A DNA stretch of 56,697 nt, from the sequence record PZ513998.1. The stretch is one strand, 5' to 3'. The position numbers were made by a program, and so were the translations under genes. Under the pieces are notes generated by a model that saw nothing but the letters and a program-made list of their open reading frames with translations, made no database searches and was not told where the DNA came from. Every line of letters starts with the position of its first letter. Within the stretch, counting starts at the first letter, position 1. The DNA comes from a phage. Shown here piece after piece: positions 1-56,697 of the stretch.

Positions 1-180
1 ATGGTGATCAGGGAAAAGAAAAACTGGTATTATTGTTCATGCGGTAAGCCGTTTAGATCTGAGGCTCGCAGTAGTAACGGGCTAGTTTTGTTTCGATTAA
101 AGTGCGTATCCTGTGGGATATATTCACCGTGGCGCGGTTCAATTGGGCTATGTGTAGCGACGCTTGACAGCACCACGTAA
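1..180 (+). CDS. hypothetical small Cys-rich protein (zinc-ribbon-like CxCG ... CxxCG)
   Basis: 59-codon ATG..TAA ORF at window start, below the ORF-track size cutoff; translation MVIREKKNWYYCSCGKPF...KCVSCGIY; its first 7 nt ATGGTGA repeat the last 7 nt of ORF 181-546. Confidence 0.3.
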   Translation: MVIREKKNWYYCSCGKPFRSEARSSNGLVLFRLKCVSCGIYSPWRGSIGLCVATLDSTT

Positions 181-546
181 ATGGGTAACTCAGTAAATTG
201 TTTCAAATTTTATGAGGTTTGTAATGAGTTTCTAAATCTACCGGTAGTGGCTATCGGGAGGCCTAGCAACGATTTATCATTACCGGAATTTAATTACTCT
301 TATGGCGTGGTGTTCCATGTTAACAACAAGTTGCTTAGAGTCCTAACCGTCCGATATTCTTATGGACACCGGAGGGCATACGTTAGGATCGACGACGTAA
401 GAACGGATTACCCTAATGTCACTTATCCGGTTTACGAGCCGGTTCTTTTCTCGGGGGAGATCGCCGGCGAATGGATACGAGGCGCAAAAAATTTATACCG
501 GAGTTATAGGGACACGCTAACGAACGTAAGGGGGTCTGTATGGTGA
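181..546 (+). CDS. hypothetical protein
   Basis: 121-aa frame-1 ORF; no motif recognised; lies between the two halves of the portal gene if the window is circularised. Confidence 0.3.
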   Translation: MGNSVNCFKFYEVCNEFLNLPVVAIGRPSNDLSLPEFNYSYGVVFHVNNKLLRVLTVRYSYGHRRAYVRIDDVRTDYPNVTYPVYEPVLFSGEIAGEWIRGAKNLYRSYRDTLTNVRGSVW

Positions 547-1671
547 ATGAAATCAATCAAGGAACTTGTCGCGAGAAGTGCGAACAATCCCCCGGAGGTT
601 AAAGCACAAGGCGGTTATGAGGGTGCTCAGCGAAACTCGCGAGAAATGTATCGCTGGACGCCCGCAATAGTCTCTCCGGATCAGGAATTAGACGGCGGAC
701 AAAAAGAATTAGCCGATGCCCGGGTTCAAAACGTTATCCAGAATGACGGTTTTGCGTCCGGTGCCGTATCGATACATCGAGATAATATCGTCGGCTCTCA
801 ATACATGCTAAACGCTAAGCCGAATTTGTCCGCGCTAGGACTAAAAGGAGCTGACGCCGAAGCATGGGAGGAGGAGTTTCAAGACGTCGTAGAGTCGAAA
901 TTCAACGTGGCTGCGGACTCAACGGAAAACTGGTTTGATGTCACACGACGCAATTCTTTTACCGGCTTGGTTCGCCTCGCGGTGGCCCAAGCACTGATTT
1001 CCGGTGAAGTATTGGCATCGGCAGAATGGTCAAGAACCGCAGGTCGTCCTTTCAATACGGCCATTCAAATGATTAGCCCGCATCGACTGAGCAACCCGAA
1101 TAACTCGGCCAACACGAAAAACATTCGAGGCGGTGTTCATGTCGATGCGTTCGGACGACCAATCGGGTACTACATTCAAAACAGTTTCCCGGGAGAGAGT
1201 TTAATCAACGGTGAGAATCAAATGTGGCGATATGTTCCATCACGCAAACCGTGGGGACGTCGACAGGTTATTCACATCATGGAGCAAATTCTCCCGCACC
1301 AAAATCGCGGTATCTCAGACATGGTTGCAGCATTGAAGACCATTAGAATGACTAAGAACTTTCAGGAGATAACGCTACAAAACGCGGTAATCAATGCCTC
1401 GTATGCAGCCGCAATTGAGTCGGAGCTACCACCGGAAGCCGTTTACGCTCAGTTAGGTTTAGGGCAACGTCCGTTCGGCGAGATTATCCATGAGATGATG
1501 ACGAACGCAGCATCGTACTACGCGACTGCTAAAAACATGGAAATAGACGGCGCCAAGATCCCGCATTTAATGCCCGGCACTAAGTTGAACTTAAAACCGA
1601 TGGGGACTCCCGGCGGGATCGGCACGGACTTTGAGGAGTCGTTACTACGCCACATCGCAGCATCGTTATAA
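547..1671 (+). CDS. portal protein, lambda gpB family, N-terminal ~70% (ends at in-frame TAA)
   Basis: 374 aa colinear with lambda B from the N-terminus to the ...SLLRYIAAGL region (motifs MISPHRLSNPNN, NAVINASYAAAIESEL, AKIPHLMPG, SLLRHIAASL); homologs continue past this point; continuation found at 56182-56697. Confidence 0.8.
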   Translation: MKSIKELVARSANNPPEVKAQGGYEGAQRNSREMYRWTPAIVSPDQELDGGQKELADARVQNVIQNDGFASGAVSIHRDNIVGSQYMLNAKPNLSALGLKGADAEAWEEEFQDVVESKFNVAADSTENWFDVTRRNSFTGLVRLAVAQALISGEVLASAEWSRTAGRPFNTAIQMISPHRLSNPNNSANTKNIRGGVHVDAFGRPIGYYIQNSFPGESLINGENQMWRYVPSRKPWGRRQVIHIMEQILPHQNRGISDMVAALKTIRMTKNFQEITLQNAVINASYAAAIESELPPEAVYAQLGLGQRPFGEIIHEMMTNAASYYATAKNMEIDGAKIPHLMPGTKLNLKPMGTPGGIGTDFEESLLRHIAASL

Positions 1672-1947
1672 ATGAGCCGTCCATGCGATGAAACTCTCGC
1701 AGTATTAAAACAGCGATATGTTGAAGCGAGCCGAGCATATCACGATTTACAAATCGGGGTGTCTGGCCGAGTGTTTGTCGACCAAAATAGCGAACGTGTT
1801 GAATTCACCGCAGCTAACCGTCAGAGTCTACTTGCGTATCTTACCGGGCTACAACGTCAGATTTGTCAGTTAGCCCCGAACGACCCGATCTGTAATTGCG
1901 GTGTCGGCTTCGGGTCAATTTCCGCACCACTAGGGGCGTTATTCTAA
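1672..1947 (+). CDS. head-tail joining protein, lambda gpW-like
   Basis: 91 aa; central segment ...RAYHDLQIGVSGRVFVDQNSERVEFTAANRQSLLAYLTGLQ resembles gpW (…[39 protein letters not shown]); sits between large terminase and portal. Confidence 0.45.
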   Translation: MSRPCDETLAVLKQRYVEASRAYHDLQIGVSGRVFVDQNSERVEFTAANRQSLLAYLTGLQRQICQLAPNDPICNCGVGFGSISAPLGALF

Positions 1948-4014
1948 ATGGCTAAATACAAAAATCTCTTTGAGATCGCGGTCAAGATGTCGGATAACTT
2001 ACGACCCCCGGAAAGGTTGACCGTTTCTAATGCAGCATCTCAATATCGATATGTAAATTCTCCCGGGTCGTATGTAGGCCCGTGGTTGAATACAACAACG
2101 CCGTATATGGTCGAACCAATGGACGTATTAACTTCGCGCAATCACAGCAAGATGGCGTTTGTAGGCCCGGCACAGTCAGGTAAAACCGACGCGATTATCA
2201 TTAATGGCGTGTCATACTCAATCAAAGTCTCACCGATGGATACAATGGTATTCTGTCCGACAATGGCAGCCGCCCGAGACTTTTCTATGCGACGTATTGA
2301 TCGTCTTCACCGACACAGCCCGCTAATCGGCGAGCAATTGTTGAAAGGTAGAGACACCGACAATAAATTCGATAAACAATACATTACAGGTATGATGTTA
2401 ACTATCACATACCCTACCGTGACCGAATTGGCCGGACGACCGGTTCCAAGAATATTGATGACCGACTTTGACCGTATGGACGACGATATCGGCGGTGATG
2501 GTAATCCATTTGACTTGGCAACACAGCGTACAACAACCTTTGGTTCGTTTGCTATGACTATGGCCGAATCGTCCCCGTCGAGAGAGATTCTTGACCCGCA
2601 CTGGATAGCTAAGTCACCGCATGAGGCTCCGCCGTGTACCGGTATTATTGCGCTTTACAACCGTGGGGATAGACGACGTTGGCAATGGCCGTGTCCTCAC
2701 TGTGACGAATATTTCGAGGGTAAATTCGAGCATCTAACGTGGGACAACGGAAAACAGCTATCTAACCGAGAGAAAGCAGAAACCGTACAAATGGTATGCC
2801 CGGAATGTGGTTGTTTGATCCACCCCGACGAACGCTTTGAAATGAATTTATTCGGAGTGTGGGTTCCGGAGGGTTGTAAAGTTGATAAGAGCGGGAGACT
2901 TACGGGCAAAGCCCCTCATACCGACTTCATTTCTTACTGGCTCCGCGGTACGGCAGCCGCCTTTACGACATGGCAAAAACTGGTAAACATCTACCTCGAT
3001 GCCCTTGACGAATATCAACGGACGTACTCAGAAGAAGCCTTGAAGAAATTCTGGAATAACAACATGGGTGAGCCGTATCAGCCTAAGTCGTTAGAATCAG
3101 TCCGCGCACCGGAAGCACTGAAAAGCCGGTCATCAGATTACCCGCTAGGCATGGTTCCGAATGACGTTCGATTCCTCGTAGCAACGATAGACGTTCAATT
3201 GAATAGCTTCGTAGTACAGGTGTTCGGTATTTCCCCGGGTTCACCGTATGACACTCATGTTATAGACCGGTTCTTCATCAACAAGTCGGAGCGTAAGGAC
3301 GAAGACGGCGACGCAATGATCTTACAGCCGGCGACATACGAAGAAGACTGGAAACTTATCGAAAAACAGGTAATAGATAAAGAGTATCCGTTGTCAGACG
3401 GTAGCGGTAGAATGATGTCAATTAAGATGACCGGTTGTGACTCCGGGGGTAAATCTGGCGTAACCGGCATGGCATACGCGTTCTATCGATATTTGAAGAC
3501 AAAGAATAAACATGCTCGCTTCATCTTATTGAAAGGTGGCACACGAGTAACAGACCCGAGAACCCGTATTAGCTATCCGGACTCTAACCGGAAAAACGAT
3601 AAGAATGCAGCTAGAGGAGAAATCCCGGTATTATTCTTAAACTCGAACTTGTTGAAAGACGCATTAAACGGACGACTAGATTGTATTGAGCCTCACAAGG
3701 GCTATTATAATATGACTAGGGAATTACCGGACGAATTTTTCTCGGAGCTATGCGCCGAAACGAGAACCGCGAAAGGTTGGGAGAATTTAGCGCAAGCCCG
3801 AAACGAAGCATGGGACTTAAGCTACTACTGTTTGGGCCTTTGTACGTCTCCGGAGTTATTACGAGTAGAGTCGATAAATTGGGACAACCCCCCAACGTGG
3901 GCGGAGGAATGGGATAATAATACGATGGTCAGGGAACCCGAGGAAGAAAAACCATTCGCCTTTCAACCTCGACCGATGTTAGACTTTAGCCGTTTAGGTG
4001 AACTATTAGGATAG
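1948..4014 (+). CDS. terminase large subunit (GpA family)
   Basis: 688 aa; Walker A-like FVGPAQSGKTDA; Cys pairs CPHCDEYF...CPECGC typical of GpA zinc ribbon; adjacent to Nu1-like, gpW-like and portal genes; first 8 nt ATGGCTAA repeat 4592-4599. Confidence 0.8.
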   Translation: MAKYKNLFEIAVKMSDNLRPPERLTVSNAASQYRYVNSPGSYVGPWLNTTTPYMVEPMDVLTSRNHSKMAFVGPAQSGKTDAIIINGVSYSIKVSPMDTMVFCPTMAAARDFSMRRIDRLHRHSPLIGEQLLKGRDTDNKFDKQYITGMMLTITYPTVTELAGRPVPRILMTDFDRMDDDIGGDGNPFDLATQRTTTFGSFAMTMAESSPSREILDPHWIAKSPHEAPPCTGIIALYNRGDRRRWQWPCPHCDEYFEGKFEHLTWDNGKQLSNREKAETVQMVCPECGCLIHPDERFEMNLFGVWVPEGCKVDKSGRLTGKAPHTDFISYWLRGTAAAFTTWQKLVNIYLDALDEYQRTYSEEALKKFWNNNMGEPYQPKSLESVRAPEALKSRSSDYPLGMVPNDVRFLVATIDVQLNSFVVQVFGISPGSPYDTHVIDRFFINKSERKDEDGDAMILQPATYEEDWKLIEKQVIDKEYPLSDGSGRMMSIKMTGCDSGGKSGVTGMAYAFYRYLKTKNKHARFILLKGGTRVTDPRTRISYPDSNRKNDKNAARGEIPVLFLNSNLLKDALNGRLDCIEPHKGYYNMTRELPDEFFSELCAETRTAKGWENLAQARNEAWDLSYYCLGLCTSPELLRVESINWDNPPTWAEEWDNNTMVREPEEEKPFAFQPRPMLDFSRLGELLG

Positions 4015-14350: not shown

Positions 14351-15090
14351 TAAAAACAATAACTTACCTTGGAACACCTATTGGAACATCAGCCGGCACA
14401 GCAATTTCCTGTGACACACCACCAGCCATGGTAATACCTAAAACGGCGCATAACTATTTGATATTATTACGGAATTACCTAAAATACCGGTCATTACGGT
14501 AAATGATGTCCCCTATTGCTAAAGCCTGTGCGTCGCTCTCCGTGCTTTCTAGAGAAGAATCACTTTTAAATCGAAAAAGGTACTTGGACGAGTTGTCCGG
14601 TTGGGCGGGGGTGCGCAGAGCCGTCTTCCAGAAATTTGTCCGGGATCTGCCATAGATGTTTGGGTGTTCGGGTGGGCGGTGTTGTGGGTTAGATGTGCTT
14701 CAAATTGTAAGCGTGTGCGATTGTGCGAGGCGATCGCGGTGTTAGTTGTCGGTCGTATCCGTTGAGCGGGGGTATAGCGCCTCGGGTGAACACGCCGATC
14801 GGGAACGTCGTTTTTACGTTTTGTGCGGGTGTTCGGGTGTGCGGTTGTACCGCATGACGTTTTTACAAATATAAATGCGGTCGCGCCAGCGCCTACCCAC
14901 CCAACACCACCACCCCAAGCCCTCACTCTCCCCCATTCCCCCCCACCCTATGGAAAATTGCCGTAAAGCCATGTGTTGCGTCCTCAGCGTGTTTTGCCCG
15001 CTAGGTAAGGCCGATGTATTACCTACGATGAGTTATGCCCGTGTGGTTCGATTGAGGGCGGAAGACGGCGCTTTGTTTGTTCCGACTTAA

Positions 15091-19425: not shown

Positions 19426-19995
19426 ATGGCAGAATTAGCATACACTAAAGCGTCTATCTTCCAATCTATCGTTGATGATGTTAGTACGGGTCTACCTAAA
19501 GGAACTTCATTAGATACCCGCGGAGATTTCGAAAATCAATTACGCGACCTTTTCGAAGAAAATAATCTTATGAATGCGCCGGAATGTATCAGCGTCGACT
19601 ACTTCGGGGAAGCATGGGAGATCGTCCAGTCTAGCGAGTTTGATTCTGTTGAGCTAGAAACGCCTTTAGATTTCAGCGGGTGCAAAAGTTCATTAAAATG
19701 TTTGATGATGGAAGCTAACGCATTAATAAGCGCGTCTTGGCGTGAACAAGTGGAAGCCTACATCGAAGAACTGGCCGAAGCACTGGAAGAAGTTGTCGAG
19801 GGTTGCGAGGAGTTCGGAACAATCGACGAACTGGTAATCACTGGCGGGTGCCGTTTCGGTCACATTCCACACCTAAGAGAGTTCGATGCTGGCGACTTTT
19901 CTGTGTGCATGTGGGCGCCGAACGAAGCCGGAGAGTCTGAAATTTATTATAATTTCCGAGGTCTGGAACTGCGCGGGGTTGTATATCATGGGTAA
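19426..19995 (+). CDS. hypothetical acidic protein
   Basis: 189-aa ORF. Confidence 0.3.
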   Translation: MAELAYTKASIFQSIVDDVSTGLPKGTSLDTRGDFENQLRDLFEENNLMNAPECISVDYFGEAWEIVQSSEFDSVELETPLDFSGCKSSLKCLMMEANALISASWREQVEAYIEELAEALEEVVEGCEEFGTIDELVITGGCRFGHIPHLREFDAGDFSVCMWAPNEAGESEIYYNFRGLELRGVVYHG

Positions 19996-20373
19996 GTGGA
20001 CGGTGTGACATACTTTTCATCAGTTCCTAAAGATACCAATTCACGCCGGGCGAGATCCCGGCTTTCTTCGTTCTTGAGTCCGCACGAAAAAGAGTTACAA
20101 CTATCTACGCACGACATACAGACTATTTTAAACCTAGCTAATGCGTTTTACTTCCGAGCTGATCCGGAGAGTAAACCGGCTTACTCAGACAACAAAACTA
20201 TTGTAAGCCTTCGCATATCCGGAATAGTCGAAGATGATCGGGGCTGGCTCATTATCCGCCGGCATTTCCTTAATTCTGGTCAGTGCTGGAAGACGTTGCA
20301 CTTAGAGGTTATTTTTACCCACATAGAAAATCTGACCTTATGTGAGTGTAAAATTCCCTATTTCCCCGATTGA
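19996..20373 (+). CDS. hypothetical protein
   Basis: 125-aa ORF, GTG start. Confidence 0.25.
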   Translation: MDGVTYFSSVPKDTNSRRARSRLSSFLSPHEKELQLSTHDIQTILNLANAFYFRADPESKPAYSDNKTIVSLRISGIVEDDRGWLIIRRHFLNSGQCWKTLHLEVIFTHIENLTLCECKIPYFPD

Positions 20374-20565
20374 ATGATGAAGAATAAAATCACATTAAAC
20401 AGCGGTATGATTTTAATCGCTGACGACGAAAAAGTTACGGTAAACGCAGACGGTTCGCTATTCTGTCCGGCGTGGGATATGCGCTTTATGTTAACTCGTA
20501 ACATTTCATATAATCGAACGGTTACACATCGAGAGGTGAAAAGTTTTGAGCGATTATACAGTTGA
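20374..20565 (+). CDS. hypothetical protein
   Basis: 63-aa ORF. Confidence 0.2.
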   Translation: MMKNKITLNSGMILIADDEKVTVNADGSLFCPAWDMRFMLTRNISYNRTVTHREVKSFERLYS

Positions 20566-54903: not shown

Positions 54904-56181
54904 ATGACGCAAGGCACTTATCAAGCTGCTGCCGTACAAGCGGTACAAGCTATTAATCTACGCCCGGCGTTTCTGGACGAACGTTCAGTCGGTTCTATGG
55001 GGAGTAACTTACAGTTGCTAGCTAACGTAGAGGCCGACATGACTGACGAAACTTGGTCAACAATGCTAAACAACGTGTGTATGACGTATGGGGTGTCTAA
55101 CAGCGCACCAACTAACAAACCATACGGATTCTCTAACGGAACCGCTTTCATTCCGGTACACGGCTCTCTAATTAACCGCTTCGGCGGTTCTTGGGGATTC
55201 GTTACAGGATATAGCTATATTCGTAGAGCACACGCAATGGCCTTGAATGATCCGGACGTCGAGAGAATCGTCTATGACGTTAATTCGGGTGGAGGCGAGG
55301 CAGCCGGTTGTATGGAACTATCGGACGAGATTTTCAGTCGTCGCGGTGAAAAACCTACACTGGCCGTCATCAACTCAAGTTGCTATTCTGCTGCTTACGC
55401 GATCGCAAGTGCGTGTGACGCGATAAGTATCACGCCCTCGGGTGGCGCGGGTTCAATTGGGGCGTTGATTATTCACGCTGATATGTCTAAAATGTTGTCT
55501 GACGTAGGAATTAAAGTATCTGTGATACGCGCCGGCGACAGAAAGGCAGAAACCAACCCTTTCGAGGAACTTAGCGATCAAGCGAGAGCAGAGCTACAAT
55601 CAGGCGTCAACGCTTGTAGAAAAACGTTTGTAGCAACCGTAGCAAGAAATCGCGGTTTGTCGGAAAAGCTAGTATTCGACACCGAAGCGAAAACATACGA
55701 CGCGAATGATGCTAAAGACTTAGGTCTAGTTGACCGCGTTGAATCGCCAGAAATGGCATTACACAACTTCATTAACGGAACAGAGAGCGAAACTGATATG
55801 GCCGTAAAAAACACAAACGCGGAGCAACCGACAATCAATGCGTCCGAAGAACAAGCTAAAGGTGCGAAAGCAGAACAAGCGCGTATCAAGGGCATTCTTG
55901 GTTGTGATGAAGCAAAAGGGCGCGAATCGTTAGCACAACACATCGCGTTCAACACCTCAATGAGCGAAGAAGATGCTAAGGCAATGCTTAACGCTTCTCC
56001 GGTTGAGAAAGCGGAAGAACCAAAGCAAGAAGAAAAGCCGAACGCTTTTAAGAAAGCAATGGACGAAGGCGAACAGCCGGGCATCAAAGCCGAGCCACAG
56101 GACACGGATAAGCCCTTAGCAACGGACGAGAATAACTCGTTATTAGACGACCTTTCAGGTCTTGGCTATTTCGGTAACTAA
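54904..56181 (+). CDS. S49-family head maturation protease / scaffold (lambda gpC-like)
   Basis: 425 aa; SppA/S49-like core (VNSGGGEAAGCMELSDEI, INSSCYSAAYAIASACD, GSIGAL); C-terminal RIKGILGCDEAKGRE matches gpC RIMGILNCEEAHGRE; ATGA at 54904-54907 repeats the last 4 nt of the window. Confidence 0.8.
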   Translation: MTQGTYQAAAVQAVQAINLRPAFLDERSVGSMGSNLQLLANVEADMTDETWSTMLNNVCMTYGVSNSAPTNKPYGFSNGTAFIPVHGSLINRFGGSWGFVTGYSYIRRAHAMALNDPDVERIVYDVNSGGGEAAGCMELSDEIFSRRGEKPTLAVINSSCYSAAYAIASACDAISITPSGGAGSIGALIIHADMSKMLSDVGIKVSVIRAGDRKAETNPFEELSDQARAELQSGVNACRKTFVATVARNRGLSEKLVFDTEAKTYDANDAKDLGLVDRVESPEMALHNFINGTESETDMAVKNTNAEQPTINASEEQAKGAKAEQARIKGILGCDEAKGRESLAQHIAFNTSMSEEDAKAMLNASPVEKAEEPKQEEKPNAFKKAMDEGEQPGIKAEPQDTDKPLATDENNSLLDDLSGLGYFGN

Positions 56182-56697
56182 AACCTTTCATACGAACAGT
56201 TTAGCCGAGACTACACGAAGACTAACTATTCTTCCGCGAGAGCCTCAATGGGGGAAACATGGAAATTCATGCAGTCTCGCAAAAAGATCATTGCTGATGC
56301 TTTCGCTACAAACATTTATGCGTTGTGGTTAGAGGAGATGATAAACAAAAACGAAATCCCGTTGCCACGAGGAAAAACGAGCGACTGGTTTTACGAACCG
56401 TTAGTGAAAGACTGTTTAATTCGTTGCGACTGGATAGGTGCAGCCCGCGGTCAAATCGACGAGAAGAAAGAGACCGAAGCAGCTATCATGAGAATTAACA
56501 GTGGTCTGAGCACTCGTGAGAAAGAAATCGCTCGACTCGGCGAAGACTGGAGAGAGATTTTTAGGCAGTTAGAACGAGAAAAACGAATAAAAGATAAATA
56601 CGGGCTTGTTTTCTCCGGAGATGTGAGTAATATATCCGCTAACGAGAAAACAAACTCGGAAGATGACGAAGAAACTAACAGTGGGGATTCGGAATGA
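56182..56697 (+). CDS. portal protein, lambda gpB family, C-terminal fragment lacking a start codon
   Basis: open in frame 1 directly after the protease stop; first ATG only at 56248; translation NLSYEQFSRDYTKTNYSSARAS...CDWIGAARGQIDEKKETEAAIMRINSGLSTREKE is colinear with gpB residues following ...IAAGL (GVSYEQLSRNY...CDWIGSGRMAIDGLKEVQEAVMLIEAGLSTYEKE); continues exactly where ORF 547-1671 stops. Confidence 0.75.
   Translation, partial: NLSYEQFSRDYTKTNYSSARASMGETWKFMQSRKKIIADAFATNIYALWLEEMINKNEIPLPRGKTSDWFYEPLVKDCLIRCDWIGAARGQIDEKKETEAAIMRINSGLSTREKEIARLGEDWREIFRQLEREKRIKDKYGLVFSGDVSNISANEKTNSEDDEETNSGDSE

Follow-up and report, generated by a model that had tools for sequence, protein, structure and literature searches.

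Proteus phage PM87 and about 25 other members of the genus Lavrentievavirus carry their head genes in the order TerS, TerL, adaptor, portal, protease, decoration protein and major head protein. The PM87 portal protein (YP_009998007.1) is 547 aa long and is annotated whole, as the PM87 record is linearised elsewhere in the genome. Among solved structures, the closest match by sequence to the portal studied here is chain D of PDB 8vhx ("Portal", 560 aa), which comes from a different phage, and a further homologue is gpB of phage lambda. Genes that span the origin of a circular GenBank record are annotated either as a join or as broken genes, and the portal gene of Escherichia phage E21 belongs to the broken kind. 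This phage, classified in the Casjensviridae, genus Lavrentievavirus, is represented by a record of 58,536 bp that is flagged circular (MN604053.1 = NC_052983.1), and its head genes follow the order seen in PM87. On the minus strand of the E21 record we read TerS, TerL, adaptor, portal, protease, decoration protein and major capsid.

We analyzed a stretch of 56,697 nt, hereafter the window, in which the portal gene comes in two pieces lying far apart. Reading the window agreed with the preliminary description of both: the ORF at 547-1671 (+) consists of 374 codons, the last of them encoding ...SLLRHIAASL, and a TAA, while the segment at 56182-56697 (+) directly follows the protease stop, opens with the codon AAC rather than with a start codon, and encodes NLSYEQFSRDY... 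in 171 codons followed by TGA. As a description of the window, the split holds. When placed on the E21 record, portal codons 1-374 (window 547-1668, +) matched MN604053.1 positions 1122-1 on the minus strand exactly, and codons 375-545 with the TGA (window 56182-56697, +) matched positions 58536-58021 on the minus strand, also exactly. No start codon opens the C-terminal piece, since the gene simply runs on into it across the record origin. The three bases in between did not behave in the same way: MN604053.1/NC_052983.1 has no counterpart of the TAA at window 1669-1671 (+). The intact second portal gene that the preliminary description had named as evidence against its own reading was not found, as a tblastn search of the window with the joined protein as query revealed no second portal-like region (next best match E = 1.2). 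When the assembly collection was queried for a protein identical to the 374-aa fragment, no entry came back, which fits a fragment that is not a natural gene product.

The two fragments had been taken as the halves of one lambda-family portal protein, and the profile searches bore this out. The N-terminal piece matched the Pfam family PF05136 (Phage_portal_2, 354 positions) at profile positions 2-320 with an E value of 1.5e-68 and 232 bits against a cut-off of 32.9, and the C-terminal piece, which alone scored 32.5 bits against the same cut-off of 32.9, matched positions 322-353. Together they cover positions 2-353 of the 354 without overlap. The PHROG profiles gave the same picture: phrog_21 was matched at positions 35-368 by the N-terminal piece and 370-527 by the C-terminal piece, and phrog_537 at 2-69 and 70-228, respectively. 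The Pfam and PHROG spans imply that the pieces abut without overlap or gap, to a degree far beyond chance, and neither the overlap nor the large gap that had been put forward as possible counterevidence was seen in these alignments. The proposed residue-for-residue alignment with lambda (IAAGLGVSYEQL) was likewise confirmed, with no gap at the junction, around which the lambda match reads SLLRYIAAGLGVSYEQL. When the joined protein was compared with lambda gpB (PDB 8k38_A), residues 20-515 of the query aligned in a single stretch to residues 20-504 of the chain (E 4.4e-95), and the motif at the junction is conserved (SLLRHIAASLNLSYEQFSRDY vs. SLLRYIAAGLGVSYEQLSRNY). The alignment with 8vhx_D also runs in a single stretch (query 20-543 to chain 34-557, E 1.1e-208) and is ungapped at the junction; the N-terminal half of 8vhx_D carries an insertion of 5 residues and small deletions. 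The matches to 8vhx_D and 8k38_A thus indicate homology to experimentally solved subunits of portal dodecamers, and the E21 protein would be predicted to form a 12-mer.

On the circular genome, record positions 1 and 58536 are neighbours, and they fall between portal codons 374 and 375. The minus strand of E21 runs out with ...cgc cac atc gca gca tcg tta at position 1 (...GCAGCATCGTTA) and resumes with aac ctt tca tac gaa... at position 58536 (AACCTTTCATAC). Read across the circular join, ...GCATCGTTA is followed directly by AACCTTTCA..., in frame, with 0 nt in between and no stop. The joined portal is a continuous ORF of 545 codons without an internal stop, and the tryptic peptide spanning its junction is HIAASLNLSYEQFSR. 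With the TAA absent from the record and positions 1 and 58536 adjacent, the stop at window 1669-1671 is not genomic. The preliminary description had offered linearisation of the record inside the portal gene as one of two explanations, and this one proved right, the origin of MN604053.1/NC_052983.1 being located between codons 374 and 375. It had also proposed inspecting the parent record for circularity and terminal repeats: the record is indeed flagged circular, and its two ends share no direct overlap of 5-199 nt. The genes on either side place the portal in a head-morphogenesis module, between terminase and adaptor and the prohead protease. The head-tail joining (adaptor) gene (window 1672-1947, +; record 1403-1128, minus strand) lies directly upstream of the portal in the genome, and the prohead protease gene (window 54904-56181, +; record 58024-56747, minus strand) lies directly downstream, overlapping the portal stop by 4 nt in the E21 record.

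The related genomes are continuous across the same point. The PM87 portal is identical to the joined E21 protein at 544 of 545 residues, and the sole gaps in the alignment are two extra N-terminal residues in PM87, whose gene is annotated from an ATG two codons upstream (MSMKS...); the same upstream ATG is present in E21. At the DNA level, PM87 reads GCATCGTTAAACCTCTCA across the junction point and contains no TAA there. A 600-nt probe built over the circular join found a single-piece match in 25 related records, with identities of 97.0-99.8%. In 22 of the 25 the probe lies under a single annotated gene (18 portal, 4 "hypothetical protein"); one of the other three has two hypothetical proteins at the place, and two are unannotated there. 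The split was seen only in the three records that bear the name E21 (two Escherichia, one "Pseudomonas phage E21"), in each case at the record's own ends. We took the correctness of the E21 circularisation from the record flag and from the agreement with these 25 relatives, and because that agreement is exact to the base, an error in the depositors' circular closure appears very unlikely.

The form of the split is explained by the make-up of the window itself, which over its whole length (1-56697) is an artificial concatenation of Escherichia phage E21 gene calls and not natural DNA. A frame walk from base 1 resolved the 56,697 nt into 85 head-to-tail plus-strand ORFs with zero intergenic bases, each running from ATG, GTG or TTG to a stop except the last, which is without a start. 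Intergenic DNA has been dropped, some 1.8 kb of the genome (58,536 bp) is absent, and natural gene overlaps appear twice. In a megablast search against GenBank phages, window 1-4014 was 100% identical to Escherichia phage E21, positions 547-4014 corresponding to record 1-3483 on the minus strand. Of the 85 tiles, 83 are exact substrings of NC_052983.1 in ascending record order, with minus-strand genes reverse-complemented; the tile with the N-terminal portal piece equals record 1-1122 (minus strand) only once its last codon is removed. The tiles at 1-180 and 181-546 are out of record order and stand at the front of the window, whereas the other 83 are in order. The head genes appear as capsid, decoration protein, protease and C-terminal portal piece, and then, elsewhere in the window, N-terminal portal piece, adaptor and TerL, all in sense orientation. 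Lambda has these genes in the opposite order, and with every gene nonetheless reading in sense, this implies that each had been turned around separately from the minus strand. A TAA has been appended to the stop-less N-terminal portal call, and no start codon has been added to the C-terminal one; the appended TAA and the displaced tiles look like the behaviour of a pipeline. The gap-free concatenation was overlooked in the preliminary description, and a genuine interruption could therefore seem possible. Of the split portal reported there, the presence of both fragments stands, but the TAA and the adjacency of the ORFs at 1-546 do not come from the source DNA. Any finding on this window that rests on adjacency, order, strand, spacing, intergenic sequence or overlaps of stops and starts is suspect and should be rechecked against NC_052983.1.

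The second explanation offered earlier, a portal truly interrupted by about 0.55 kb carrying the ORFs at 1-180 and 181-546, did not survive comparison with the record, where these ORFs occupy positions 19875-20413 and the natural portal junction contains 0 nt and no stop. The first encodes 59 aa (window 1-180, +; record 19875-20054, minus strand) and the second 121 aa (window 181-546, +; record 20048-20413, minus strand), and both are unrelated to the portal, from which they lie some 19-20 kb away in E21. In 26 other related records they are likewise found far from the portal, at corresponding positions. Neither ORF matched Pfam or PHROG and hence neither has an endonuclease or Hint domain, and Rfam gave no match at E ≤ 1 on either strand of window 1-1800. 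The 121-aa ORF overlaps a neighbour on each side in the genome: its ATG shares bases with the end of gp20, and its TGA with the ATG of the 59-aa ORF (ATGGTGA). The second overlap suggests translational coupling of the two ORFs. The 59-aa ORF is conserved in 28 records, two E21 copies included, while belonging to no Pfam or PHROG family; its cysteine pattern CxC...CxxC (C12, C14, C35 and C38) suggests a small zinc-ribbon protein.

We are all but certain that the split is an artefact of the record origin and of the construction of the window, and that the gene is intact on circular DNA. On this reading, the depositors let the numbering of the circular record start within the minus-strand portal gene, and a gene caller running on the linear string therefore reported codons 1-374 as a 3'-open call at the left end and codons 375-545 as a 5'-open call at the right. 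When the window was built, the N-terminal call was closed with a non-genomic TAA, two unrelated small ORFs were placed ahead of it, each call was flipped to the sense orientation and the intergenic DNA was discarded. On the real circular or concatemeric DNA, an uninterrupted portal gene of 545-547 codons resides in the order TerS-TerL-adaptor-portal-protease-decoration-capsid, with no splicing, read-through or mobile insertion involved. None of the tool results contradicted this explanation.

Other explanations can be set against the same evidence. An interruption of the portal by a mobile insertion of about 0.55 kb, be it an intron or a cassette encoding, for example, a homing endonuclease, with the product spliced or made as two polypeptides, draws solely on the layout of the window, where the N-terminal piece follows two small ORFs and ends in TAA. 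Given that those ORFs lie about 19 kb away, where they overlap their natural neighbours, and are similarly remote from the portal in the 26 other records, that the TAA is absent from the record, and that the Rfam search of window 1-1800 and the Pfam and PHROG searches of both ORFs found no match, we regard its probability as negligible. Specific forms of interruption were considered separately. A group I or II intron was rejected on the 0 nt between codons 374 and 375, the absence of an Rfam match in window 1-1800 and the absence of an endonuclease or maturase ORF; an intein was rejected since the junction shows no insertion relative to the PM87, 8vhx and lambda portals and no Hint domain was found; and stop-codon read-through or recoding was rejected with the TAA absent from MN604053.1/NC_052983.1 and from PM87.

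The remaining alternatives question the record rather than the window. E21 might have been mis-circularised, a real insertion, terminal repeat or stop having gone missing at the record ends, and the arbitrary in-gene position of those ends is indeed typical of a breakpoint chosen by an assembler. We nevertheless consider this very improbable: the ends join in frame at precisely the nucleotide that 25 relatives read straight through, the record retains no direct overlap between its termini, the length of 58,536 bp falls within the 57.6-59.1 kb of the relatives, and any loss would have had to be exact to the base. There is an extremely small chance that the circle is wrong at its closure in such a way that codons 374 and 375 are parted in the phage, for example by a mobile intron or intein that varies in the population and broke the assembly precisely at its own edge; were an element present between these codons, E21 would have a rare interrupted portal gene. 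It is also extremely improbable that the record ends are physical ends of the virion DNA inside the portal gene, produced, for example, by a fixed pac or cos cut. Nothing beyond the position of the record ends speaks for such a cut, whereas the record was deposited as circular, PM87 and other relatives carry the portal intact and internal, and the records of PM87 and of no fewer than 13 further relatives have their ends at what corresponds to 14.49-14.57 kb in E21.

This last observation points to a different place for the genome termini. At least 14 relatives have record ends that cluster at E21 positions ~14486-14569, with PM87 (linear), SD-11/13/14, the vB_PmiS series, PLY284, P16-2532, SVV09-A and AS-M1_NWU among them. 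In E21 the region contains no GenBank CDS and is partly outside the gene calls of the window. From the clustering we infer that the virion termini of the genus, a cos site or a terminus region, are probably located there and not in the portal gene.

The consequences of the origin placement are visible in the annotation of the source record. Both GenBank and RefSeq versions of E21 list only a 150-aa "portal protein" (58021-58470) that begins at an internal Met, and record 1-1122, with the 374 N-terminal portal codons, has no CDS in either. The gap arises because the record origin was placed inside the gene, and in NC_052983.1 an origin-spanning CDS could close it, complement(join(58021..58536,1..1122)), or with 1..1128 should the upstream ATG annotated in PM87 be chosen. 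The start of TerL (window 1948-4014) varies as well: the window call begins at record position 3482 and gives 688 aa, GenBank and RefSeq begin at 3443 and give 675 aa, and the PM87 protein is annotated with 691 aa, implying that the start codon is inconsistently annotated across the genus.

No paper on either Escherichia phage E21 or MN604053 came up in a literature search. The sole "phage E21" paper concerns the near-identical record labelled Pseudomonas, and the accessible portion of its text neither discusses the genome ends nor states the assembly method of PV596763.1. That record ("Pseudomonas phage E21", 58,554 bp) shares with Escherichia phage E21 its name and its linearisation point within the portal gene, and the two are 96-99% identical over the compared regions. 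The shared linearisation point may reflect a reference-ordered assembly. More broadly, genomes whose probed regions share more than 95% identity are labelled as coming from Proteus, Salmonella, E. coli, Pseudomonas, Staphylococcus ureilyticus and Enterococcus durans. Such a host spread is implausible for near-identical phages, and some of the host labels are thus probably wrong, through contamination or mis-assignment.

The portal gene of E21 is intact and encodes an ordinary lambda-family portal without biological novelty; it is typical of its genus, and its apparent split has no biological significance. Relative to lambda gpB, it is a moderately divergent homologue and not the orthologue in a lambda-like genome, E21 being, unlike lambda, a chi-like siphovirus of the Casjensviridae. 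Relative to an ordinary origin-spanning gene in a circular record, the E21 portal as seen in the window differs by a second layer of artefact, in which the gene calls were concatenated, a stop was appended to one of them and two ORFs were displaced.
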